Source: Tricharina praecox
Lineage: Eukaryota
Reading direction: 5' to 3'
Assembly: GCF_024521635.1 (NCBI RefSeq)
Contig: NW_026250414.1
Span: 1 to 64,000, forward strand
Length of the DNA stretch: 64,000 nt
This document shows, piece by piece, positions 9,602-60,700 of this stretch; position 1 is the first letter of the stretch, and each line of letters begins with the position of its first letter. The position numbers were made by a program, and so were the translations under genes. Below the pieces are notes generated by a model that did no database searches, had not been told where the DNA came from, and worked only from the letters and a program-made list of their open reading frames with translations.

Positions 9602-11623
9602 ATGGATAAAGCACGCAGCATGGAGATGAGTAAATGCGGTGCAGACAGCGGAAACACCAGCGAGAAACAACCGAAAGCTGCTACGCGTTCCCCACTCGCG
9701 TCAGTAACTAACAACGTCGTCCCACTGAAGACCAAGCCCACTGCCATTCCCTTGCCGAGATATGGTATGGGATCTGGGTCGGGATCTGACACCCTTCGGT
9801 TGAAGAAACGGAGACGCGGTACCGTCGACGCGAAGAACATAGTAGACACAAACTTGAACACTCCATCTCCTGAAGGACCGAGTAGTCGTAGGGTGCGATT
9901 GACGAACGATGCCCCAGACATTCCTGCCCCAGCCACCGAGAAGCAGTTCAGGGATTCGAACCAGACCAAGGAGTCCAAGGAGTCCAATGAATCGAAGGAG
10001 GCGAGGGACTCCAAGGAGTCGAATGATTTGAACGAGAAGAAGGAGTCCAACGAGACGGAGGATTCGACCGAGAAGAAGGAGTCCAACGAGAAGACGTCGA
10101 CCGAGACGACGGACCTAAAGGAGCTCAAGGAGAGGATATCACGGCTATCGGGGAAGCTCATGGCACGCGGGCGCAGCCCTAGCACGGGTGCACAGGGTTT
10201 CAACATGCCGATTGAAACACAGAGGCGGCGCTGGTCCGGGGGGATGGTGGGACCCGAACGGAACCGTGACATAGACAGTTTTAAGACGAGTCTCGGTGCA
10301 TTCAGGGAGAGGCTCGATGACAGGTTTGATAAGAAGGGATGGCGGAAATCCGAGAAGGTGAATGATGCCCCACTTGGTAGTCCATCCACAGCCACTGATC
10401 TGAATATCGCTACAAAGTCGAAGGAGACGGAGAAGAGCGAGCCGGAGGAAGTGAAGGCCGGGAGGGAGTCGATAGCACGGTTATCCGAGAAGCTTCTGGT
10501 ACGTGAACGCAACCCTGGCACGGATGTATTTCAGCTGACATTCGATAAGAATATTGAAACTCAGAGACGGCGCCGCTCGGAGGATCTGGTGGTAGTTGCA
10601 CGCAGGCATAGCATGGATTCATATAAGACGGGACTCAATGATTTCAGGGCCAGACTCAACGAGAAGGTTGAGCAGCAGAAGAAGCGAACCGAGGAGCTGT
10701 TGCGAGCTCAACGTAGGCGGAGCTTAGACTCCTATAAGACGAGACTCAATGTTTTTCGGAAGAGACTGAATTCGAAGGTTGAGGGTATGAGGCGGCAGCG
10801 ATTCGAGAGGAGGAAGGATGTTGCAACGAAGAACGCCGAGGGAAAATCGGAATGGCTGATAACGAAGGACAGGGAAGGAAGATTGGGCCTAGAGAGGAAG
10901 ACGGTGTTGTCTTCCAGCACGAGACAGAGCTTGAGCTCGCAGGCCACATTCGTGGATGCAGCGGAGACCGAAACCGTCGACGACTGCAGAAGAGGAAAGA
11001 GAGTTACACCTTCACCGCCAGCGCTAGCAACCAATCCAGTCCTCGCATTGAGAGCAACGCCCGCTATCCTCCCACCGAGATTTGGCTTGGGGTCCGCCGA
11101 CTTCAGTCTGTCGAGGAAACGCCGACGGAGCAGCTCCGACTCCACAGGCTCTCTAGTGGAGCCGGATAATCGACGAGTACGATTTCCGAACGATGACGAC
11201 GCACCCGCACCCGCTCGGCGTCCGAAGCCCTCACCCTCGTACACGCGGATGCTGACCTCGCGCACCTACGTCCCGCCGCCCGCGCACACCCAGCCAGCGA
11301 AAGGTCGCCTCCGGGCCCCGGCGGTTTTCGACTCTGCGCCGGACACCCGCACCTCTCCGAACCGGTTTCAGCGTTCGGATGCGAAATCCCCGCTTCTTAC
11401 CCTCACGAGGGAGGACAGGCGCAGAATCAGCAAGCTGCAGGAGTTGAAGGCGGAGTTTGACTTGGCTAGGGCTATATCTAGGTCGATCGTCCATCAGGCG
11501 GAGGTGATTATGGAGGATTTCTCCCCTAGGTTGAGGGAGGAGGTCGAGAGCATGGGGGTCGGCCCGGATCCGACGCAGGGGCTGGGCTTCGACGAGGACG
11601 AAAATGATAACGAGGAGTATTAA
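9602..11623 (+). CDS. Hypothetical 673-aa basic, internally repeated protein
   Basis: Long single ORF with pyrimidine-rich leader, internal duplications, (ESKESNE)-like repeats and Arg/Lys clusters. No family recognised. Confidence 0.7.
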   Translation: MDKARSMEMSKCGADSGNTSEKQPKAATRSPLASVTNNVVPLKTKPTAIPLPRYGMGSGSGSDTLRLKKRRRGTVDAKNIVDTNLNTPSPEGPSSRRVRLTNDAPDIPAPATEKQFRDSNQTKESKESNESKEARDSKESNDLNEKKESNETEDSTEKKESNEKTSTETTDLKELKERISRLSGKLMARGRSPSTGAQGFNMPIETQRRRWSGGMVGPERNRDIDSFKTSLGAFRERLDDRFDKKGWRKSEKVNDAPLGSPSTATDLNIATKSKETEKSEPEEVKAGRESIARLSEKLLVRERNPGTDVFQLTFDKNIETQRRRRSEDLVVVARRHSMDSYKTGLNDFRARLNEKVEQQKKRTEELLRAQRRRSLDSYKTRLNVFRKRLNSKVEGMRRQRFERRKDVATKNAEGKSEWLITKDREGRLGLERKTVLSSSTRQSLSSQATFVDAAETETVDDCRRGKRVTPSPPALATNPVLALRATPAILPPRFGLGSADFSLSRKRRRSSSDSTGSLVEPDNRRVRFPNDDDAPAPARRPKPSPSYTRMLTSRTYVPPPAHTQPAKGRLRAPAVFDSAPDTRTSPNRFQRSDAKSPLLTLTREDRRRISKLQELKAEFDLARAISRSIVHQAEVIMEDFSPRLREEVESMGVGPDPTQGLGFDEDENDNEEY

Positions 11624-16568: not shown

Positions 16569-17436
16569 GGCTAGATGGAATGTTAGTAGAGGAGGTGACG
16601 GAGGAGTGACGATTGCTGTAGGTGGAGAAGGAGGCGTACCGATCGGTTGTTTGGAGACTTGGGTGCGCAGTGGGTAGAGAATACGATGTGTAGGTCGTAG
16701 TATGTGGCGGGCGATGTACGGTGTACGGTGTGTATGTCGTATGCAATGAGCATTGTATTTATAGTGCAGGAGGTTTGTTTTGCTCTCGGTGTGTGCAGTT
16801 GTAGAAGACAGAGTGGTGCTATGGCGACAGACTCGTCCGCATTCGGCCGATTCGCGTCACCGTCCAGTTTTCGATGGGTTGCGTGCTTATATGAGTATTC
16901 CGACGGTCCGCCTTGGACGGGCTGCGTACTAGCATGAGTACGAAATACTCATGGCTGTATCCGAGGAAGTGTTTCGCAGGCCTCTGACAATTGGATGGCC
17001 CGGTCTTTACACTACTCTACTCGTACCTGCTGATTTTTTCACGCCCACAAAGCTCTTCGTAGATGAAAACGAATCACCTACTCCCGTACAGAGATGAAGG
17101 GTGCTGATCGATCTATAATAGAGCAAGAATAGATCTATTTCTGTTCGAATCTTCAGTGTCGTATCGTGGGAATGGAAGACATGACGTTGATAACCCCTAA
17201 CCCCAGACGAGAGTGAGAACTTATGACAGTGTTATTACGCACACGTGACTACGACCAGGTATCATGTCCTATCTCGGATGTTCGATTACCATCTCTATCT
17301 CCTAGATCGAATACGGATGAGTTACATGAAGTGATCCACTCTTCGCATCCCCACCACCACGCCTCCACCACCACGCCTCCACTTTTCCCATCCCCACCAC
17401 GCCCTCACCAATAGGCGCACCCGCCCGTCCACCATC

Positions 17437-18054
17437 ATGCCCAGCTTCCTGCACCTCCCCATCGAGCTTATCATCCAAATCACGACCTACATATCCAGTT
17501 TCAAGACTCTCGCGGCGCTTATATGTACGCACAGCTACTTCTCCACCCACCTCACCGAGCGGCTCTACCTCCTCGCGTTATCCGAAATCCGCGCGATCAT
17601 TCCCACTTACCGTCGCCCGATCCGGCTGCAGACACTTTCGCACCTCCCGCAATCGCCCATCTTCCTAATACCCGGTAATGGGCGCGCCTCGATCCCTGGT
17701 TGGGCGATCCTCTACGGGCCTGACACACTCATGCGGCGACTTCTCAGGACCGAGGGTGGACTCTCGCCGAGAGCGCTATTCACCCACTGGTGGGCTGGCA
17801 TGCACCACGTCCCGATCCTCAGCGTCGCGGTGATACATTTGCGTCTCGAGGTGGCAGCCGTGCTGCTGGAGGCGGGAGCCCGGCCGAGTATGCGTGAATC
17901 GGTCATGTGGGCTCCGCTTAGGTATGCTAGTACGGAGGTGGAGCATGTCAAGTGGAACAGGATAGTAGTGTTGGAGAATCAAATAAGAAACTGGACTGAA
18001 GAGGAGGTGGAGATGGGGAGGTTGTTGGTTACTTACAATGCGATCGGGAGGTAG
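17437..18054 (+). CDS. F-box protein with ankyrin-like repeat
   Basis: N-terminal FLHLPIELIIQITTYI..LAALICT (F-box-like); PILSVAVIHLRLEVAAVLLEAGA (ankyrin-like). Confidence 0.7.
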   Translation: MPSFLHLPIELIIQITTYISSFKTLAALICTHSYFSTHLTERLYLLALSEIRAIIPTYRRPIRLQTLSHLPQSPIFLIPGNGRASIPGWAILYGPDTLMRRLLRTEGGLSPRALFTHWWAGMHHVPILSVAVIHLRLEVAAVLLEAGARPSMRESVMWAPLRYASTEVEHVKWNRIVVLENQIRNWTEEEVEMGRLLVTYNAIGR

Positions 18055-20370: not shown

Positions 20371-21397
20371 GCGATGGAGGTGGTAGTGTCCGGGTGCCGT
20401 ACTCGTTCAGCTAGCGAGGGGCCTCCAGTCCGCGAGCAGTGGGGTCGTGGGCAGCCAGCTTGATGAGATAGCAAAGAACCACCGCCGACCTGGGGGGCGC
20501 GGCTACATCCGAGCCTGGATACCGTAGATGGAGCGGGTAGGCGTTAGAGCTTGGGATATGGCCCTGCCATTGGAAGGAATTGCACCCCTGATCCTTCCCG
20601 TCTATGTAACTGAGTAAGTACGTGCCCGCTGGTTGATCCATCCGTATATCGTTTGCGATTCATCACCGTGTAAATAGAAACCGCCTTTCAAAGATGCTGA
20701 GAATGATAGGAGGATTGGTAGGAAGATAGAACTGTTTTGTTGCTAGCTTCTTCTCCTCTGGGTCGGTGCCCTTCTATAGATAAAGAATATGTCGGCTGTG
20801 GGAGACAGACCCGCCGGCGTGACCAGACACCAGAACACATCTCCCCCTCCGGATATAGTTCACATGAACGAGTCCTTGACTCACTCCGGATACAGTTCGT
20901 ATGACCGAGCCCTTGGCTCCTTCAAAAACAGTGCTTCTTGGAACTTCGCCATCACCCCACAGCAGCGATGAGGAGAGATCTTTCATGTACTCCGAGCGCC
21001 GTCATCTGACATGTATGTACTAGCTACTGTCACCTAGTTGTTCAGCGTGTGCGAGGACGCGGAGATGGGTCTCAGCTCCGGCTGCACCCGCAACCCCCGC
21101 TGGACCAGGCCGCACCAGCCGCGCCCTGCTTTCTTATAAAAGACTCTTCTCTCTCTCATCTCCGCTCTCTCTCCTCTCTCTCTCCTCAACACAGGCATCA
21201 ACATCGACATCAACGCCCGACAAACCCCTCGGTAGGTGTCCACCTACAACCATCCTCTCCCCACGAGGGCAGTTATACGCAGCCGCAGCCGCGGCACGAC
21301 ACGATGATATTTGCCGGCAACACGCCGGGCATCGTACCCAGCACAGCGGGAGGAATAATTTCCCCCCGCGCCGTCGAACACTTCCCCGATATCAACC

Positions 21398-22589
21398 ATG
21401 TCGAACCCCCCACTTCCCTCGACCCCAGCCGCACCCTTGACCGAGCCATCCCAAGAACCCACGACATCTGCCAGCTCGTCTACCGCACTCCCCTCGATAT
21501 CCACATGGAACTTCAGCCCACTGCTGTCCATCAGTGCCTTCGCCGCACCAGCCCCAGTTCCAATCTGGCCCGACGCCCCACGACGTTCGACATCACCCGC
21601 GCGCTTCACCACACCGCCGCCGAAACCAACCCTGACGCTCCTGGCGTTCGCCAATGAGATACTCTACAATATCCTCGAGTTTCTCGTCCCAGTCGACGTC
21701 AAAAACATCCGCTCGCATCCATTCGTAGCTCTCTCCAGCTCGTGCCGGCTCCTATACCACTTAATAGAGACTCGCTGTTTCCGCGTCCTCAGGAATGCAG
21801 CCGAAGATCCCAGGGTCCGTAACTCTCCCTTATAACCATTCAGGACGGCTCGAGACAACTGTTTCCGGAATGTACTTATCCGCTGGCTCGTAAGGCGGTG
21901 CAGATACTGCCTCATCCCGTAGTCGCGGCTTGCGGCGATGGACGAGAGCGTCTGCTGCTGCCGCCCCTGCGACAAGAGGCTGCACAAGCTGTACGACATG
22001 ACTGACGTTCGCTCGGCCGAAGAGATGTGGGGGGTGCGAGAGAGCGAGCTGCTCGAAAATCTCCCCCATGGGCCATGGCCCTCACGGTGATCTGAGGAGA
22101 TCCCTAGTGCAGGCCTACATCGAGCGAAAGTTCGGGTTCGACGCCGATCTCATCTGTGCGGCTAGAAGGGCCCAGATACTGGCCAGGCCGGTCGTTGCCA
22201 TGGACGCGAAAAATTCGGCGCAGAGCCGCGAGCAGGCGGCCAGGACGTTCTGGGCCGACATGCGCCAGGACTGGGATGTGGTGTACGCTCAAACGGGGTT
22301 GGTGCTTAAGCGGCCCACCGACGAGCTGCTGGACCTGACCGAGGCGAGCCTCTAGAAGGCCTTTCACGCCAAGGAGGCGAAAAGAAAGTGGTGCAGAATG
22401 CAGCGCGAGAATGTCGCCGCCATCGACGTCATACTGGAGATCGAGGAGAACGCGGATATGAGGTGCAAGTGGTACAATGAGGTCGCGGGGAATAATCCCG
22501 CTGTCATGCTTGGCAAGGTCAAGCATGAAGACGAGGTCCGGAAGTTGACGGACAAGTACGAGGAACGCCAGGCACGCAAGGGTGTTTGA
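21398..22589 (+). pseudogene. F-box protein with Cys-rich (CxxC..CCxxC) region, disrupted
   Basis: LLAFANEILYNILEFL F-box. The frame continues past TAA 21833 and TAG 21920 (RCRYC..CCCRPCD), shifts near 22067, and continues past TAG 22353 to TGA 22589. Confidence 0.6.
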
Positions 22590-23589
22590 TTTTCTCGGGT
22601 TTTTTTCACGGGGGTTTTAATTCCTTCAGAGTGCTCATGTCTTTGCCGTTATGTGGCCTGCCATCTTTTTGTTTGCGTTTAAAATCTATATCTTTTTCAT
22701 GTTCACTTAAACCTGTTTTTTTGTTTTTGCTGGCTCATGAAGTGAGCCGCATCTGTTTTGTCGTGGTCGAAGCTGATGCAGTTCTTGGCCGCCCATTCTA
22801 GAGATGCCTGCGCTACTTCCTCGAATTTCTCAGACTGTCTTCTTTGTCCTTACCTTCCGCCCACTATCTAGGCCAGTTTGTCTAGCAAGGAAGGGGCTTT
22901 GATTCCGCGACACTTCTTCTCCACTTCCTCAAAGATACCTGAAAGCTATATGAAGAAGAGCATTGATGTCTCGGGTGAGCCTTGGCGAACTCTGGTATCC
23001 ACGTGGTGAGAAAGCACTTCTTCTTCGTTCAAAACCAGCTTGCTCTCCATAGAACAGCGTACCAAAAATTGCCGTGTTGCGATTCTCATTCTGGTCTCGT
23101 TCTCGATGAAAAGCCATCGTCGTCACTCGTCCAATATATTGCACATTTGTCAGATTGGTCTTTTGCGCCTTTTGCGCCATCTCGAATGCGCCTCGAATGC
23201 GCCTCGACAATCTTGTTTACTCTCATACTTGCTTCTGTCTGGTATGTCTGGCTGATCATCCGCTGCTTCTGCGAATGAATCAAGCAACCGAATAATATCA
23301 ATCTCACTTGTATTCTCAACATGCCGTCGACATCGAAGGGCGAGTGAGATCCTGTGACACCTCCCCTGCGAAAGTTCGAGTGAGAGCCCTAGACCCCTCA
23401 CTCGCAAAACCGTGAGTGCGGGCATTGTTGAATATTGCCCTATCATCTTGCAAGTAGCGTCCCCCGCACGGACCAATTGAACTGTGAGTAGCTAGTGTAT
23501 TTTCAAAATAAAACCTCCGGATCGCGAGCGTCGAACTTTGCTTCACCGTGAATCCGAGATACCTTCCTCACCTTTACGACCCAAAGTCG

Positions 23590-25423
23590 ATGGACTCCAG
23601 TAAGTACACCCCACTAGCCCATCCGATAGCTGGTAATCACCAAGTTAATCTCGTCCTCTAGTGGATTACCAACTCGCCCCGCCGATGAGTGGTATCACCA
23701 ACCAGCTAGGTCACATCCCTCAGCCAAACCCTTGTCTCCAGCCGCAGGTAGTAGCTGGTCAAGATCGCGCTCGCCGCAACTCTACTCCCGCTCCGGAGAG
23801 CTGGCGCAAGCGCCGGTTCGACGATTTGTATGACGCCGAGGAAGACGAGTCCTCTTCCCCGTACGTCCGATCCAAGCCTATAGAGTACATCGAGAACGAA
23901 GTCCGCCGCGGCTACATCTTCACCAAGCGTACGGCTGCGCTTTTCAAACATGTGCGTAACCCCATGGCGCATTCACCCATGCGAGTGATAACTGCTGACT
24001 GTCTCCCGAGGCAAACGAAATGTCAGTCCTCACCGGCTGTCAGTACATGCTGTGTGTTGTGATGGGCACGCGGATCTACCGTCACACGTCGCCCAAGCTC
24101 ACGCCCATGCTGTTTGGAAAAAAGGCAGAGTGGAATCTCCTGGTAAGTTGAGCCACGATACTCGAGGAATGAGGCTGACCCACCGCCGCTGCAAAGGACA
24201 CCATTGGCGCAGCAGACGGGATCTACCTGGATCTAACGAACGAACACGAGGAGGTTGCACCGGGAGCCAAAACCGAGCCCCCGAACGACAGTCTTCTCGC
24301 TGATAATCCGCCTTTCCCCCCTGGCTATGAAGACCGCGCTGTTGGGGCTCCTGGTGCCGGAGCCTCTGGTTTTAGAGCTTCTTGCCCTGATGCCTATGGC
24401 CCTGGTATCTATGGCCCTGGTATCTATGGTCCTGGTACATATGGCCCTGGTGCGTCTGGTCCTGGTGCCTATGGTCCTGGTACCTATGCTACCCCTGCCC
24501 ATGGTCCTGCTGCCTATGGTCCTGGTGCGACTTGCCCTGGTCATTATGGTCCTGCCCCCCATGGTCCTGGTACCTATGGTCCTGCCAGTAACTATGGTCC
24601 TGGTGCTTCTGGTACTGCTGCACATGGTCCTGGTGCGACTGGCCCTGGTGGCACTGGCCCTGGTGCCTATGGTCCTGGTGCTTATGATTCTCGTGCCTCT
24701 GGCCCTGGTGCGTCTGGTCCTGCTGCCTATGGTCCTGGTACCTATGTTCCTGGTGCCTCTGGTACTTTTGCCCCTGGTTGGTCTGGTCCTGGTACCTATG
24801 GTCCTGGTGCTTCTGGTACTGCTGCCCATGGTACTGCTGCCCATGGTCGTGTTGCCTCTGTCCCTGGTGCGACTGGGCCTGGCGCTGCTGTTCCTGATGC
24901 GTCTGCTCCTCGTGCCAGAGCCCCTCGTGCTCCTAGAGCCCCGTCTGTTAAAGCCACTGGTGCCTCTGGCCCTGGTGCCTCTGGCCCTGGTGCGATTGGC
25001 GCTGGTGCGACTGCTCCTCGTACCAGAGCCCCTCGTGCTCCTAAAGCCACCGGTTCTAAAGCCACTGGTTCCAAAGCTACTCGTGCCAGAGCCCCTCGTG
25101 CTCCTAAAGCCACTGGCTCCAAAGCCTCTGGCGTTGGACGCGCCGGTAGTACTGGAGTCTCTGACTCCGACTTTGGACCCGCTGGCAGTGGACCTGCTGG
25201 CAGTAGACCCGCTGTCAGTGGACCCTCCTGGCTCGGACCCATTCAGTCTGGAGGCTCTGACTTTAGCCCCGCTGGTACTGCTGGAGCCCGTGACTTTGGA
25301 CCCGCTGATAGTGGACCCTCTTGGCTTGGAACCCTTCCGACTGGACGCTCGGGCGTTGCACCCCCTGGTACTGGAGGCTGGATCCCAAATCCGAGTGATA
25401 AAGGCTCTGAGGGTGGACTCTAG
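23590..25423 (+). CDS. Divergent SRF/Mcm1-type MADS-box protein with silk-like (GPGxY)n low-complexity tail; join(23590..23599,23662..23951,24011..24142,24197..25423), 552 aa
   Basis: Spliced frame gives RSKPIEYIENEVRRGYIFTKRTAALFKHANEMSVLTGCQYMLCVVMGTRIYRHTSPKL, which aligns by eye to the Mcm1 MADS box. The last exon is open for 408 sense codons with YGPGI/YGPGT/SGPGA pentapeptides. Introns 2 and 3 use the less common GAG and AAG acceptors, each behind a CTGAC branch site. Confidence 0.8.
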
Positions 25424-26080
25424 CTACATAGCTTCTGAGATCAAAATGCGATGATCCGTCACTTTCTGTCGCCTAAAAATAAATGTGCATTCAAATTACG
25501 ACTTGGGCGGACTATTCTTGTGCTGTCCTCCATTTCATAGTTGTGACTCAGAAAGTACCAACACTGCTCAGTTCAAGGTACCTCACGACAAGATATAGCA
25601 GGACTTGGTTGAAAAAAGTGACGCCGTTCAGTCTGTAACCGCGTGATATCGCATGATTTGTGTAGCACGTGATACTAACATCTGGCATCCGAATGCGGCC
25701 GAGTCAAGTCAGTTCCGCAAACGGTTGATCCGCTCTAATATGTTTTGGAGCCTGTGGGATAGCTTACAAATACAGCAGTTGCTCGCAGATGTTCCGTTCG
25801 GCCGAAGCTGGCAAGGCATTTGTAAGTAAGTACACTTAAAACGTCTCGGGATTAAGTCGGCGATAGCGGAGCTCGAGTCGGCCTCAGCGTGGGTTCAGTG
25901 GAGCGCTTCGGGCGAGCAACGCCGGGCGAGTAGATATAAACTCTACTGCTTTTCTACTGAGAAAGAGAAGATCACCTCGATCCCTACATCCACACGCACT
26001 CCGATCCAGCCCGCTGCCCAACCCATCACACCCACGCACCACCCCACACTTCAACTCCACCTACCCAAACCCCCACCACA

Positions 26081-26968
26081 ATGGTGCACATCGCCATCGC
26101 CGGTGCCTCCAGCGGCCTGGGCGACTCCATATCCCGCGCCGTCCTCTCCAATCCCGACAACAAGCTCACAGTTCTCACTCGGGGCCGGCAACCCCAGCTC
26201 ACCTCCCTCGGCGCCAACGTCATGGTGGTCGACTACACCTCGATGCCCTCGCTGACCGCGGCGCTCAGCGGCGTGCACACGCTGATCTCGTGCGTGTGGG
26301 CTCCGGGCAGCAACCTCGCTGTCACACAGTCGCTGCTTGCGGCCTGCAAAGCCGCCGGCGTAAAGCGCTACGCGCCCAGCGAGTTCGCGACGGCCGGGCT
26401 GGCTAATAAGAGCATCGCCTTGTATGCGCAGAAGGATGATGTGTGGAAGCTGGTCCGGGAGAGTGGCCTCGAGTACACCGCGTTCCGCCTGGGTGTGTTC
26501 ATGAACTACCTCAGTGCTGGCGCACCGGGGGCGGAGCAGCAGGCGCTGAAGTTGTTTCCCGTCGTGGTGGATGTGAAGGCGCGCACGGCGACGATTCCGG
26601 GGACCGGAGAGGATAGGGTCAGTTTCACGGCTATCGAGGATGTGGGACGGTTTGTGGAGGCGGCGTGTCAGCTGGAGAAGTGGGGGGTGGAGAGTACTAT
26701 GTTCGGTGAGACGTGGAGTTATAAGGAGGTTGTGAAGCTGGCTGAGGAGGTCACTGGGGAGACGTTTGATGTGAAGTATCTATCTAGGGAGGAGATCAGC
26801 GGCAGGATTGAGGAGAAGAAGGATGACGTGATGGGGAAGTTCTACGAGGAGGTGCTGGTGGCTATTGTGGATGGTCTTGGTGAGGTCAAGGGGGAGCTGA
26901 ATGAGCTCACCGATGTCAAGCCGATTGGTGTCAAGGCTTTCTTGGAGAAGTGGTGGGGCAAGAAGTAG
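26081..26968 (+). CDS. NmrA-like / isoflavone-reductase-like NAD(P)-binding oxidoreductase
   Basis: IAIAGASSGLG Rossmann motif, AGVKRYAPSEF, GLEYT..G.FMNY, SFTAIEDVGRFV; TATATAAA upstream. Confidence 0.9.
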   Translation: MVHIAIAGASSGLGDSISRAVLSNPDNKLTVLTRGRQPQLTSLGANVMVVDYTSMPSLTAALSGVHTLISCVWAPGSNLAVTQSLLAACKAAGVKRYAPSEFATAGLANKSIALYAQKDDVWKLVRESGLEYTAFRLGVFMNYLSAGAPGAEQQALKLFPVVVDVKARTATIPGTGEDRVSFTAIEDVGRFVEAACQLEKWGVESTMFGETWSYKEVVKLAEEVTGETFDVKYLSREEISGRIEEKKDDVMGKFYEEVLVAIVDGLGEVKGELNELTDVKPIGVKAFLEKWWGKK

Positions 26969-28310: not shown

Positions 28311-29166
28311 TGTTGTTTTGCCGATGGTAGGGAGGATGGAGGTGGGGTGGAAAGGGCAGTTCGAGATGCCGTCGTGTTCTCGGGAGTCGGCTCGGCTATC
28401 GCGGACTGTGCTAACTATCGCTGGGCCGAGAATGGTGGGCCAAGATCGCTAAATCACGTGCTCCGGGTTTCGCCTCCCTTCAACGTGCTTCGGCACTGCT
28501 CTTCTGGAAGGTACGGATGCGAGGATTCATATCCGTTTGCTGTGTAATTTGAATGCGACCCAACTGGATCATCGCGATACGGAAGGTTCATAAACACTCC
28601 ATTTCATATATATGCGATGCCTATTTTAGACGCCGTGCCGTTTCAGCTTCGCGTGATATCCCATGTCTCGGAACCAGCTTCCCTGCACAGCCACAATAGT
28701 TCGCCGCCAGTAGGCCACCCCTGCCACACTCATCCATTCAGCTCACCGCCATGCCAGCACTGCATGAAGAACCATGCTAAGGCGTTCTACAGATACCCAC
28801 TCAGACATCGAACAGCACACTGCACACGTACTCTTGCTCCCTCTCCCCTTCTGCCCACTCACTCCAACGAAACAACTCCTCCACCAACTCATTCGGTTCG
28901 CTCGTCCCGTCCCCGCGAATCACCTCCCGTCGCTTGAACCCACCCGACCCCCGTTTCAGCAAGCCAGCCAGCCACCGTCGCCTCCTCCTCCCTTGCGCTC
29001 TCGGCTGCGTGGAAACCCGGCGGCATTCACTCGCAGATAGACTCGCTGCAGAGATTGGTGCGACACAGCAGAGTACAAAACTCTGTCGCTTCCCCGCCCA
29101 CCGCAAGGCATAGCTCTCTCCACCTCACACCTACCTTTCCCCACGAACGAACGACGAAAAGAAACC

Positions 29167-30073
29167 ATGTCGTTCAACCAAGTAGCTTACCAGAACCGCG
29201 CGATCCGCTCCATCCAAAATGTACAGCAGTGAAGAAGCGGCCCCCTCCGATCGCCTCGGTCGCAGTCGCTAACATCTCATTCCAGGAGCTCGATTTCCTC
29301 GTCGAAACCGGCGTCCTCACCTCCTCGCAGATGTCGCAGATCCTCAACATCCTCCCGAACCCATCCGGCGTAACCGCTACCTTGCGCGCACAGACTCCCG
29401 CCACGATGGCGCCGGCCCAGTCCGCCACACCCGCCGTCCCGCATATGGGTTTCACACCGCCCATGTCGCCTCCTGCGTCGACCAAAACGCCAGCCCACGA
29501 GAAAGCGATGCAGCCCATCTCCGGCCCCACGCCGCCGCAGCCGCCGCCACCGAGCTACACCGCATCAGCGGGGATCCTGTCGCGCGCCGAGGCGATGTGG
29601 GCGTTCAACGGCTCCGAAGCCGGCGATCTGTCGTTCCAGGCGGGCGAGACGATCGAGGTCATCGAGAAGATCAAGGACGACTGGTGGCGCGGACGGGTCA
29701 TGGGGCAGATTGAGATTGGACTCTTCCCGAGCTCGTATGTGAAGGAGACGCAGGTGCTGGGGAACGGCGCGGGGAAATTGCCGGGTCTGCCGCCGAGGAA
29801 GGAGACGGGATACTCGGCGTACGGACCCGGTGGGAACATGATGACTGATGTCACCCATGGATCTGGGAGTGGGGAGTACCAGAATGAGGAGAAGAAGGGT
29901 GCGCTGGGAAAGAACGGGGAGAAGTTTGGGAAGAAGCTGGGAAATGGTTTGTCATCACCCCCTGAGTTATGCCGCTTAGCGGTCGGCTATCGGTTACTAA
30001 CGCCACCCTTTCAGCTGCGATCTTCGGTGCCGGTGCAACAATCGGCGGCAAGATTGTTAACGGCATTTTCTAA
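29167..30073 (+). CDS. SH3-domain protein of the Lsb1/Pin3 family, two introns
   Basis: Spliced MSFNQVAYQNRAIRSIQN|ELDFL; SH3 AEAMWAF..GDLSF..DDWWRG..GLFPSSYV; C-terminus KFGKKLGNAAIFGAGATIGGKIVNGIF typical of Lsb1/Pin3. Confidence 0.88.
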
Positions 30074-30554
30074 GCGATTGGCGAGAGACGTTGCTTCTGT
30101 ATTGGTTTGTGCGGCTCTTCGGGTTTCTTAGCTTCTTTCTGTGTGCGCTATGCGTTCCTCATGTTTGTATTTTCCAGTCTTTTCTACGATAACGTACGAC
30201 AGTGTGCTGGTTTGCGGTTGCTTATGACGATTGATGTCTTTTTTTTGCGTTCTGAAGACTTTGATATTGATGTGTATATTTCTTACTGTAGAAGTGCCGA
30301 CTGCTAAATCGAGCTTCCATGTGCTTTCGTTTCCATAGCGCTCGTAGCTGCAATGGAGCATGCGCGAAGTCATTTCGAGTGGCACTATGGCAAGGCTTGT
30401 GTGATACAGACCAGCCATATGGACCTGCTGCTCCCCTCCCGCTCCCTCCCCGCTCCACGATACAACGCACCTCACTGCCAGAGTACTCGGATTTTTTGTT
30501 TACTACCACCACAGCACACACGAGTTTTCTTTTCCGTTCCGTTCCTGATTCACG

Positions 30555-57757: not shown

Positions 57758-60700
57758 TCAATCAAGCCCAATCCCAAAACTCCCCTCCTCCGGCATCACC
57801 CCGGGCATCAACTTCAGCAACCCAACCATCACCGCAGGCGAAACAATCATGTCCCCCGCATCCCCCGGCACCTCCCCAAACCTCCCCATCAACAGTTCAC
57901 ACACACGCATAACCTTCAGCGGGCTGAGCTTGCCAGCGGGAATCCCGCCGCTTATCCCACCGACGCCCAGCGCGTGCCGCCCCGCCTCCATCGGGACTAG
58001 ATGGTCGAACCGCGCTTCTTCGGACATGGCCGCGGCGGTGGACGGGGGGAGGTAGGTGGTGTGTGTGCGCCAGAGGTTGGAGAGTGTTTTGCGCGCGGTG
58101 GATTGGAGGGTGTGTGCTTCTAGGTGGCGGGAGGTGGGGGTGGTGGGGGTGAGGATTGGGCTTGGGGGTGGAGAAGGTGGACCGGACGTGGAGGGGCCAA
58201 CGGCGGTATTAGTACTGCTGCCGCTCTTGGAGTCCCGCAGAAGGATTAGTTGGCCGAGACGGAACTCGGCGCGGATTCGGCTCTCGAGTGGCCACTCGTC
58301 GGGTTGGGAGAGTGACTGCCGGAGGTGGGTTCTGGTGGTGGGATTAGCTGGTTTTCTAGGTAAATGGCAGACTCGACAGTGGGACTCATTGGAGGGGGGG
58401 ACAAACTCAGCCTCCTCAAATTTTCCACGCTTCTGTTCCAGCATCGCGAGAAGATAATACGTATCCAGCGTGCATCTGGCCGATGGGCCAAACAGCTTGA
58501 CACGATTATCCAGCGTGTACAGCAGCCTCTCATGCGCATCCTCTATGTGATCCGCACTCAACCAGATATTCGCCCAGAGGAAGTGAAAGATCTGGAACGC
58601 CACGAAGTATTTCCCATCCTGCGGCATATCCTCCATCTTTGGTATGAGCTCCATCGCTTCCGGGTATCGTCCCGCCGCGGCGAGAGCCACAGCAACGTTC
58701 CGCACGTTTTCGCAGCTGGGGAGCTCATGCTCGTCGCCGAGGAGCCGGCGTCGGATAGCGATGGCGAGCTCACTCACTGCGTGTACATCATCCCAGGCCT
58801 CGAAGTCGATGAGGGCTAGACCAAGGTTCCCCCAAGCGGCGGCATAATTGAGCACATCGTCGAGGGTGACCTCGTTCGGCTCGACAGTATTGATCCAGTG
58901 CTGACGCAGAGCCAGGGCCTTCTGGAAGCGGTGGAGGTTTCCCACACGCCCGGCAATGCCGGAGTTGCAGCGCACCGACGCCGCAATCGTGTGCACGTTT
59001 GCGCGCTGCATCTCGTGTCCACTGGTGCGTGAGAGCAGGCCGCAGATCGACTCCGCGGTGTCGCTCGCTCGCAGACCGTCGGAGAACAGGTTGCGCTCCC
59101 AGAAGTAGTTGCTGCAGTCGCTGAGCATCGTCGCGAAGTCGATGCAGGGCGGAGGCGGCCGCGCGGTGCTGGTGTACACGGCGCGAAGCGTCATTACGTG
59201 AGAGGAGTACCGCTCGCATTGGTCCCAGATGTCGTTCTGCGGAAGTTGGATGTTGGAGCCCCGTGGGAAGACGGCTCGGATCAGGAGGAAGGCCGTCATG
59301 AACGTCTGCCGGAAACGCTCGGGATCGTTGTCGAGTCGGTGCAGTAAACTGCGTTGCAGCGAACGGTGCATCACTAGGTGTTTGGTTCCGCCGATGTACA
59401 CGCGGTCCACCAGGTGCCGTGTGAGCAGAGACCGAAGCATCTCCTGGAAGCTATACCGTATAGTTTAGTATTGTCCTCAGCGAATGGCCGGACCACGTAC
59501 CAAGCACATAAGACGGGACGGGGGAGAACGGTACCGCATCAGGTCCGGAGCAGCCAGAAATGCAAGCTCCGGCTCGGTGTGCACACCGTAGAGCATACCC
59601 TCGGGTACTCCGTCCGGATTCAACATGCTCAACGTCTGCACCAGTCTCAGTGCATCGGGATTCTGTCGCTCGAGCCTGTTCAATGCCAGGTCCCAGACCA
59701 CGCCGAGTCTTTTCTCGTATTGGAAAGTGCTCATGTTTCCCTCACTGGCAAAGATATGCGCGCTGTTGCTCCGCTCCTGAAACAGCAGCAGAAAGTCTTC
59801 AAACCCAGCCTTGCTCTCGTAGATGTATCCGGCGACGTGTGCGATCGCAAGCGGCAGTCCGCCTAACTCATCTGCGATCCGATTCGCCTGTCCACTGGCG
59901 TCCGCGGGGGCGTCGACATTGACATGATGGTTCAACTTGAGCAGCAATCGGCCACCCTCCGCCTTCGGGAACGGCTGCAGGCGCACCTCTGAGCGTGTGA
60001 CCTGCGCCAGACTCGCATTCTGACTCGTCAGCAACAGGGCCCCCCCACGCGACGGCCAGTACGGCTTCAGCGAGGCCCAGTCCTCAGCATTGTCGAAGAT
60101 CAGCAGCCACCGGCGCTCGCACGCCTCGAGCCACTGCTTGACCATCTCCGACAGCGCGCGGCTCAGTCCGGCGGTGCCGGCGTCGAGCCGCAGTGCCCGC
60201 GCCAGCGCCGCCACGCTGTCAGACAGCTCCGCATCCGTCTCCGCCCGGATCCAGAATATGTAGTCGTACGCGAAGCGGTAGCGGTGCGTGTACTCGATCG
60301 CGACCTGTGTTTTCCCCAGCCCGCCGATTCCGTGCACCACGGTCGCGCGCTGCCCGTGAACATCCCCGCCCGCAACTTCGCTGTTGAGTTGGCTGTGCAG
60401 CAGCTCCAGTGCGTCGTCGCGCCCGCAGAAGTAGGGGTTCCGCTGGTACGGCACCATGTACAGACTCTCGGGGACCCGGGGAGCTATGGTCACGTGTGGC
60501 AGCGCGGCGTCGATGCGCTCTTTGACTTCCTGGACGGTGCGCGCTCCCCGCACTACCTCTTGGTCGACCGCCAGCTGCCGCTGCCGTTCGAAACGTGAAA
60601 CGTGGCTCTTGATGTTCGCTTTCGAGGTTCGGAATTTGCGCTCGACTGTGCTCCAGAAAATCCGCAGGAGATTGTCTACCGTACGTACACACCGGCGTCA

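Follow-up and report, generated by a model that had tools for sequence, protein, structure and literature searches.

We identified a candidate gene at positions 23590-25423 of a 64,000-nucleotide stretch of DNA from Tricharina praecox (NCBI RefSeq assembly GCF_024521635.1, contig NW_026250414.1, positions 1 to 64,000 of the forward strand; the whole stretch is hereafter called the window). On its sequence, we are somewhat inclined to interpret it as an unannotated four-exon fungal gene for a 552-residue, highly divergent MADS protein of the SRF/Mcm1 type, with a disordered tail encoded by a minisatellite. It is probably a real, orphan MADS-box gene. Its MADS identity is well supported by sequence comparisons, because three independent searches returned type I MADS proteins alone, collinear and in register.

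Structure of the predicted gene

The exons were joined by their coordinates in a script (Table 1). Together they amount to 1659 nt, i.e. 552 codons with a terminal stop only and no internal stop, and the predicted protein is rich in Gly (18%), Ala (15%) and Pro (13%) and harbours 24 Tyr residues. Introns of filamentous ascomycetes are short, with GTRNGT donors and CTRAY branch sites. The three introns predicted here, 62, 59 and 54 nt long, are of the short Pezizomycotina style, all have GT..AG boundaries, and two of them contain a CTGAC branch site 12-18 nt ahead of the first AG. Intron 3 has the strongest splice consensus of the three (GTAAGT and GCTGAC, with the first AG 18 nt on). The initial annotation of this DNA, made from its letters and a list of open reading frames (ORFs), had proposed a hidden spliced frame with three introns, and such a frame is present, with its GT..AG sites and 552 stop-free codons.

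Intron 1 is the weakest part of the gene model, because no CTRAY branch point was found when positions 23600-23661 were scanned, the first exon is only 10 nt long and an alternative in-frame ATG is present at 23685, within exon 2. Exon 1 is accordingly the least certain exon, and the real start could be the ATG at 23685 instead.

Exons 2 and 3 have the appearance of coding sequence. Of the six frames of exon 2, one is stop-free, and one to five stops are found in each of the others, as in the other frames of exon 3. Codon use was scored against eight local reference ORFs, which gave values of +0.05 to +0.30 in frame and mostly negative ones out of frame. Exons 2 and 3 scored +0.10 and +0.15, respectively, both within the range of the local ORFs, and their GC contents at third codon positions are 0.66 and 0.73. 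The overall GC content is 0.55-0.66 from position 23700 to the stop codon, where it falls from 0.61 to 0.41.

Identity and register of the MADS box

The MADS box is split between the end of exon 2 (KPIEYIENEVRRGYIFTKRTAALFKH, about 23874-23951) and exon 3, which encode its first and second halves, respectively. We scored the two halves exon by exon against the Pfam SRF-TF profile (PF00319, gathering score 26 bits), and we searched 177,635 PDB sequences for matches to E≤10. SRF-TF is the sole Pfam row for exon 2 at E≤10, with residues 75-95 aligned to positions 1-21 of the 48-position profile. All three PDB matches of exon 3 are MADS proteins, namely MCM1 (1mnm, E=0.018) and SRF (1hbx and 1k6o, E=0.22 and 0.28), residues 2-36 of the query being aligned to MCM1 residues 48-83 and residues 2-37 to SRF residues 42-78. 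For the 31 residues at the end of exon 2, there is a single PDB match, SRF again (1hbx, E=1.3), in which residues 8-30 of the query align to residues 17-39.

The two halves fall into exact SRF register when intron 2 is removed: SRF numbering runs from 17 to 39, the His and Ala residues at the junction fill positions 40-41, and the numbering goes on from 42 to 78. The alpha-I/beta-sheet signature is collinear with those of SRF and MCM1, with one 1-residue gap, and the register is continuous over the splice. A rough summed score for the SRF chain 1hbx, taken from separate searches with the exon-2 tail and exon 3, is 12.6 + 15.2 bits. No MEF2 chain was found among the PDB matches of exon 3 or of the exon-2 tail at E≤10, and the box reads as type I (SRF-like) and not as type II (MEF2-like), although with weak scores. 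With intron 2 taken out, the predicted MADS core, which spans roughly residues 75-140 of the spliced protein, is intact and in register as well as collinear. The SRF/Mcm1-type MADS box claimed in the initial annotation was thus recovered in the Pfam row of exon 2, the MCM1 and SRF matches of exon 3 and the exact SRF register. Exon 2 searched as a whole gave a PDB match to RPB3 (E=0.3) over its acidic N-terminal region, which we took as a chance match.

Divergence from Mcm1 and SRF

The candidate shares with Mcm1 and SRF the order and spacing IEN..RR...F-T/S-KR.....K-x-A-x-E-x-SVLTG-x-Q..L.VV...T..Y...S/T-PK-L/F-x-P. It keeps RR, F-T-KR, K-x-A-x-E-x-SVLTG-x-Q, the L.VV strand, the Tyr residue and S-PK-L-x-P, whereas IENK is replaced by IENE, KRK by KRT, the Gly by Ala and KK by KH. 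By its signature, it would belong to the type I MADS family, and its conserved basic motif is altered. The basic and small residues of KRK-x-G-xx-KK and the Lys of IENK are not found, and the candidate has KRT-A-A-LF-KH and IENE in their places; the substituted stretch KRTAALFKH had been pointed out before and is confirmed in the sequence. In the structures of SRF and MCM1, the replaced positions lie on the DNA-contact helix, and for this reason DNA binding may be weakened or altered.

Identity counted in the alignments is 23/59 with SRF (9/23 in the exon-2 tail and 14/36 in exon 3) and 15/35 with MCM1, and identity of the MADS core to Mcm1/SRF is about 40%. For canonical fungal Mcm1 orthologues, mutual identities of 80-84% are given in the available text of PMC10819945. 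The candidate also differs in length, with 552 residues vs 221-226 for the Mcm1 proteins of Podospora and Sclerotinia (PMC10819945; PMC4057718, both in part). In both the candidate and Mcm1, a low-complexity region follows the DNA-binding core. That of the candidate is encoded by a 15-bp minisatellite; canonical Mcm1 has a Gln-rich tail.

The repeat tail

Besides the 15-bp minisatellite in exon 4 (Table 1), Tandem Repeats Finder detected duplications of 108, 63 and 54 bp and, towards the 3' end, another repeat, of 15/30 bp. In the frame of exon 4, the array yields 35 X-G-P-G-X-like pentapeptides, their consensus unit being TAT GGT CCT GGT GCC (YGPGA) and their form (Y/S/H/T)-G-P-G-(A/T). GPG occurs 20 times in the whole protein, ten times as YGPG and five times as SGPG. 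The basic block that follows harbours the sequences APRARAPRAPRAPSVKATGA and TAPRTRAPRAPKATGSKATGSKATRARAPRAPKATGSKAS, with APRAPK/ATGSK repeats. A 15-bp repeat encoding about 35 pentapeptides with about 20 GPG, a basic block and duplicated DFGPA motifs had all been described in the initial annotation, and all are present in the exon-4 translation. It had also called the tail spider-silk-like, with the formula (GPGxY)n. The GPG pentapeptides stand, but nothing beyond the motif does (no Pfam family at E≤10, no significant PDB match). The sole PDB match of exon 4, to Antigen 85B (E=0.051), was taken as chance.

A single-sequence AlphaFold2 model of exon 4 has a mean predicted local distance difference test (pLDDT) score of 38.9 and no secondary structure, which hints that the tail may be disordered.

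Exon 4 is poor in A, with 13% overall and 6-12% in the array, and this scarcity would explain why stop codons are few whichever frame is read. At codon position 3 of the GPG frame, G is nearly missing (4-8%), outside the 15-bp array too, which differs from exons 2 and 3.

Table 1. Features of the candidate gene and its flank, in window coordinates.
Feature	Position	Strand	Description
Predicted four-exon gene	23590-25423	+	exons joined by coordinates
Exon 1 (putative)	23590-23599	+	10 nt, ATG GAC TCC A (Met-Asp-Ser-); join in frame
Intron 1 (putative)	23600-23661	+	62 nt, GTAAGT...TAG
Exon 2	23662-23951	+	basic cluster SWRKRRF, acidic/Ser patch DDLYDAEEDESSS, first MADS half at end
Intron 2	23952-24010	+	59 nt, GTGCGT...CTGAC...GAG; inside MADS box, phase 0, between His and Ala
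Exon 3	24011-24142	+	second MADS half and start of C-terminal extension, ANEMSVLTGCQYMLCVVMGTRIYRHTSPKLTPMLFGKKAEWNLL
Intron 3	24143-24196	+	54 nt, GTAAGT...GCTGAC...AAG
Exon 4	24197-25423	+	408 codons and TAG stop; low-complexity tail
15-bp minisatellite	24386-24870	+	32.5 copies, 72% matches, 3% indels, score 341 (Tandem Repeats Finder)
Basic Ala/Pro/Arg/Lys block	24905-25129	+	APRARAPRAPRAP..., PKATGSKATGSKAT...; 108-bp and 63-bp duplications
Two DFGPA...SGPSWLG motifs	25169-25237 and 25292-25330 (span 25169-25330)	+	inside 15/30-bp GGACCCGCTGGCAGT repeat
AATAAA	25478-25483	+	55 nt past the stop

Three frames are open over exon 4: the GPG frame from 24179, a Leu/Val frame from 24237 to 25454 and a minus-strand frame from 24233 to 25423. 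Only the GPG frame is open from 24179 onward, and the first AG past the branch point of intron 3 sets exon 4 in this frame. Both points speak for translation of the tail, as do the strong splice consensus of intron 3, register shifts in the array that all come in multiples of 3, and the fall in GC content at the stop with an AATAAA beyond it. The Leu/Val shadow frame reported by the initial annotation is indeed open, but not as the only other one, since the minus-strand frame is open as well. In three runs of soil metatranscriptomes, we found one 45-nt contig piece at 24813-24847 and nothing more, which is uninformative on expression.

Annotation status and search for relatives

Two flanking ORFs, an NmrA-like one at 26081-26968 and another at 9602-11623, are exact entries of the NCBI/UniRef-derived protein collection, and the source genome is therefore annotated. 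Word-indexed searches of the same collection returned no protein containing exon 2, 3 or 4, so that the gene can rightly be called hidden, as it had been. Among longer proteins, 25 candidate relatives of exon 2 were scored and none passed, and no candidate shared three words with exon 3; for exon 4, 8000 candidates of near lengths were scored, and again none passed. Scans of Joint Genome Institute (JGI) metagenomes with exons 2 and 3 found none, and the ESM Atlas gave no usable match for exon 4. The absence of canonical MADS proteins from the large searches is expected, because their scores are too low against a 44-residue query. Within the window, tblastn with the three exons detected no second MADS copy. 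The gene is unannotated and, within reach of these searches, an orphan.

A few matches were rejected. The only phmmer match of exon 3 among 1.84 billion representatives, a 1658-residue bacterial-style tandem-repeat protein, has no matched stretch and is spurious, and the best ESM Atlas score for this exon (0.76) belongs to an unnamed cluster and is unusable. Weak tblastn matches of exon 4 at 59.9-61.4 kb (E values of 2e-4 to 1e-3, without composition correction) were taken as low-complexity noise.

Weighing the evidence and the alternatives

A number of results weigh against a divergent MADS gene with a translated repeat tail. The SRF-TF match of exon 2 scores 14.6 bits (E=0.022), under the Pfam gathering cut-off, and exon 3 has no SRF-TF row; taken singly, the MADS halves are sub-significant, with PDB E values of 0.018 to 1.3. 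The acceptor of intron 2, GAG, is the rarest acceptor form. Exons 2, 3 and 4 have no entry in the protein collection, and no relative that would show conservation was found in any of the searches. No CC(A/T)6GG (CArG) site is present on either strand of the window vs 2.28 expected from shuffles, a scarcity that is not significant and is uninformative on binding.

Other such points concern exon 4, where two other frames are open across almost the same 1.2 kb. Counted by codon position, the mismatches to the array's consensus unit number 37, 40 and 34 at positions 1, 2 and 3, respectively. Measured against a consensus array, the Nei-Gojobori ratio of nonsynonymous to synonymous differences (pN/pS) takes a value of 1.00 for the GPG frame, the other plus-strand frames giving 0.91 and 0.88. 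Variation in the array looks neutral, amino-acid constraint not being visible, and with pN/pS near 1 in all frames the substitution pattern failed as a pointer to the translated one. By codon use, exon 4 scores -0.08 to -0.34 in the GPG frame and +0.09 to +0.22 in the Leu/Val frame. In the array, 75% of the third positions of the GPG frame are T, with GGT, CCT, TAT, TCT and ACT, the least-favoured codons of the genome. Because the array is in effect a single founder unit of five codons in about 35 copies, we discounted the codon test there; even so, the outcome of the test stands as a count against a translated tail.

Among the alternatives, the one that survives best, although we consider it rather improbable, is a decaying or silent MADS duplicate (a young pseudogene or a relic) lying beside an expanding minisatellite, the openness of exon 4 then stemming from its A-poor repeat. 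The pN/pS of about 1 in the array, the atypical codon use of exon 4, its three open frames, the loss of several conserved basic MADS positions, the lack of annotation and the absence of relatives in the searches made would all fit such a history. However, the 552 codons contain no stop or frameshift, all three sets of splice sites are intact, and the indels visible as register shifts in the array are all multiples of 3. Exons 2 and 3, moreover, are compositionally unbiased, open where other frames have stops and normal in codon use.

It is somewhat less likely still that the product is a short MADS-only protein and the minisatellite is non-coding. Retention of intron 3 would end the frame at a stop 7 nt into the intron (24149-24151), giving a protein of about 146 residues, or else the tail would be untranslated 3' sequence. 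The tail shows no sign of purifying selection and has unfavoured codons, and a MADS core with a short extension is enough for Mcm1 function. Yet intron 3 is the one with the best consensus, the GPG frame is open for 408 codons, flanks outside the 15-bp repeat included, and no A/T-rich 3'-end signal follows position 24151, the AATAAA and the drop in GC content coming only after 25423.

Lastly, a chance resemblance to MADS proteins, or another product encoded by a 375-residue Leu/Val/Met/Pro ORF (24327-25454) or by the minus-strand frame, is very improbable: both frames outscore the GPG frame in codon use and each MADS half-match is weak alone, but the three independent searches agree on MADS proteins, neither frame has a Pfam match at E≤1, the NCBI/UniRef-derived collection does not contain the Leu/Val ORF from ATG to stop, no upstream start lies within the ORF bounds of the Arg/Thr/Ser-rich minus-strand frame, and a protein with about 70% Leu/Val/Met/Pro and no membrane-segment periodicity is in our judgement implausible.

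Comparison with known systems

Most filamentous ascomycetes have two MADS-box factors, Mcm1 and RlmA/Mig1, according to the available text of PMC4057718. The portion of PMC12282165 at hand reports 15 MADS-box genes in Talaromyces marneffei and 7 in T. stipitatus; the extra genes (mads1-15, including madsA/mads7 and mads9) are duplication-derived and divergent, and two or more of them bind chromatin and regulate morphogenesis, the functions of two being supported by chromatin immunoprecipitation sequencing (ChIP-seq). The accessible part of PMC5415576 lists the MADS family without giving counts, and a literature search on MADS expansions in Pezizomycotina yielded plant papers almost exclusively. 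Like these Talaromyces genes, the candidate would come in addition to the usual Mcm1 and RlmA pair. Lineage-specific extra MADS genes have already been published (PMC12282165), and a further paralog resembling Mcm1 would be nothing new in kind. The likeness to the Talaromyces genes is one of description; the sequence searches returned no relative of exon 2, 3 or 4, and no repeat tail is mentioned for the Talaromyces genes in the text of that paper that was available. What would be new here, as read from the sequence, is a member of a known DNA-binding family that combines a repeat tail with extreme divergence. The sequence searches returned no protein with a MADS-box and repeat-tail architecture; no literature search was aimed at MADS-GPG fusions.

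The tail resembles flagelliform and MaSp2 spider silks in its tandem Gly-Pro-Gly pentapeptides, GPG being found in 20 of the 35 units. An A/T bias at wobble positions is seen in silk genes, and the array is likewise a short DNA repeat with an A/T-biased wobble position, as measured here. In contrast to silks, exon 4 has no spidroin N- or C-terminal domains (Pfam, E≤10), the N-terminus of the candidate being a MADS box; there is no signal peptide context, the repeat following a nuclear DNA-binding domain; and the units are degenerate (72% DNA matches), with no significant PDB match. The resemblance to silk is one of motif only, not homology.

Another likeness is to the SYGQ-type domains of EWS/FUS and the heptads of RNA polymerase II (Pol II) in its C-terminal domain (CTD), in which regularly spaced Tyr residues also occur in a structure-less repeat rich in Gly, Ser or Pro and associated with a DNA-bound factor. 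According to the available parts of PMC12107149, PMC10519987 and PMC13642991, these domains activate transcription and associate with themselves. They differ from the candidate tail, which shares no sequence homology with them and has a pentapeptide as its unit.

Genomic neighbourhood

Two short tandem duplications lie upstream of the putative ATG, at a distance of about 400 bp (23160-23210, + strand), with units of 9-10 bp, T-rich and ending in GCGCC, and of 12 bp, containing GAATGCGCC. They may be promoter elements. Farther upstream, two ORFs (17335-18054 and 21359-21835, + strand) have sub-threshold F-box/F-box-like matches (E values of 0.04-0.05, about 14 bits) and may form a small duplicated F-box gene pair. 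The 673-residue ORF at 9602-11623 (+ strand) has no Pfam family, and the one at 26081-26968 (+ strand) matches Pfam NmrA (E=4e-24). Each of these two ORFs is the sole member of its own 90% cluster, and sequenced close relatives of the source genome are few in the protein collection. Downstream, an ORF with an SH3 domain (SH3_1, E=7e-13) lies about 3.5 kb from the MADS gene, at 28938-30131 (+ strand). On the minus strand, two adjacent long ORFs at 57758-60697 have matches to NB-ARC/AAA (59477-60697, NB-ARC E=6.8e-10) and TPR_10/TPR_12 (57758-59464). This region looks like a fungal NLR-type (NB-ARC and TPR) gene, possibly with an intron or a frameshift dividing a single gene.

Possible mode of action and significance

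If the spliced MADS protein is made, its MADS core would dimerise and contact DNA in the manner of MADS proteins, and the SWRKRRF cluster may serve in nuclear import. As several conserved basic or small positions are replaced, the affinity or the specificity of binding would probably be weakened or changed, and for that reason the protein may work mainly as a partner of canonical Mcm1. The tail, of roughly 400 residues, would be an intrinsically disordered effector region encoded by the minisatellite. Its regularly spaced Tyr and His residues in a matrix of Gly, Pro and Ala could make multivalent weak contacts and act in activation or as a hub, by analogy with the EWS/FUS domains and the Pol II CTD, and the Ala/Pro/Lys/Arg repeats might add non-specific DNA affinity in the way of histone H1 tails. 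As the tail is encoded by a 15-bp array, its length could change in frame by slippage. The condensate formation and length tuning of the tail proposed by the initial annotation are analogies only.

A bolder proposal, which we regard as unlikely, unites these elements. The gene would encode an orphan, fast-evolving MADS regulator whose 15-bp array is a self-associating activation or hub domain of variable length, like a variable number tandem repeat (VNTR), and whose altered helix makes it a modulator or dominant-negative partner of the essential canonical Mcm1. Were this true, strain-to-strain variation in repeat length would tune a developmental regulon.

Until now, work on lineage-specific extra MADS copies has centred on Talaromyces, as far as the available text of PMC12282165 indicates. 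Repeat-rich genes can slip through annotation pipelines, and here the flanking genes are annotated and the MADS candidate is not. If silent, the locus would be an ordinary decaying duplicate beside a minisatellite. If expressed, it would represent an extreme case of an extra MADS copy, with a core that shares about 40% identity with Mcm1/SRF, no relatives found in the searches and a Tyr/Gly/Pro repeat tail, and this tail could be used to test how low-complexity domains act on a natural DNA-binding scaffold.

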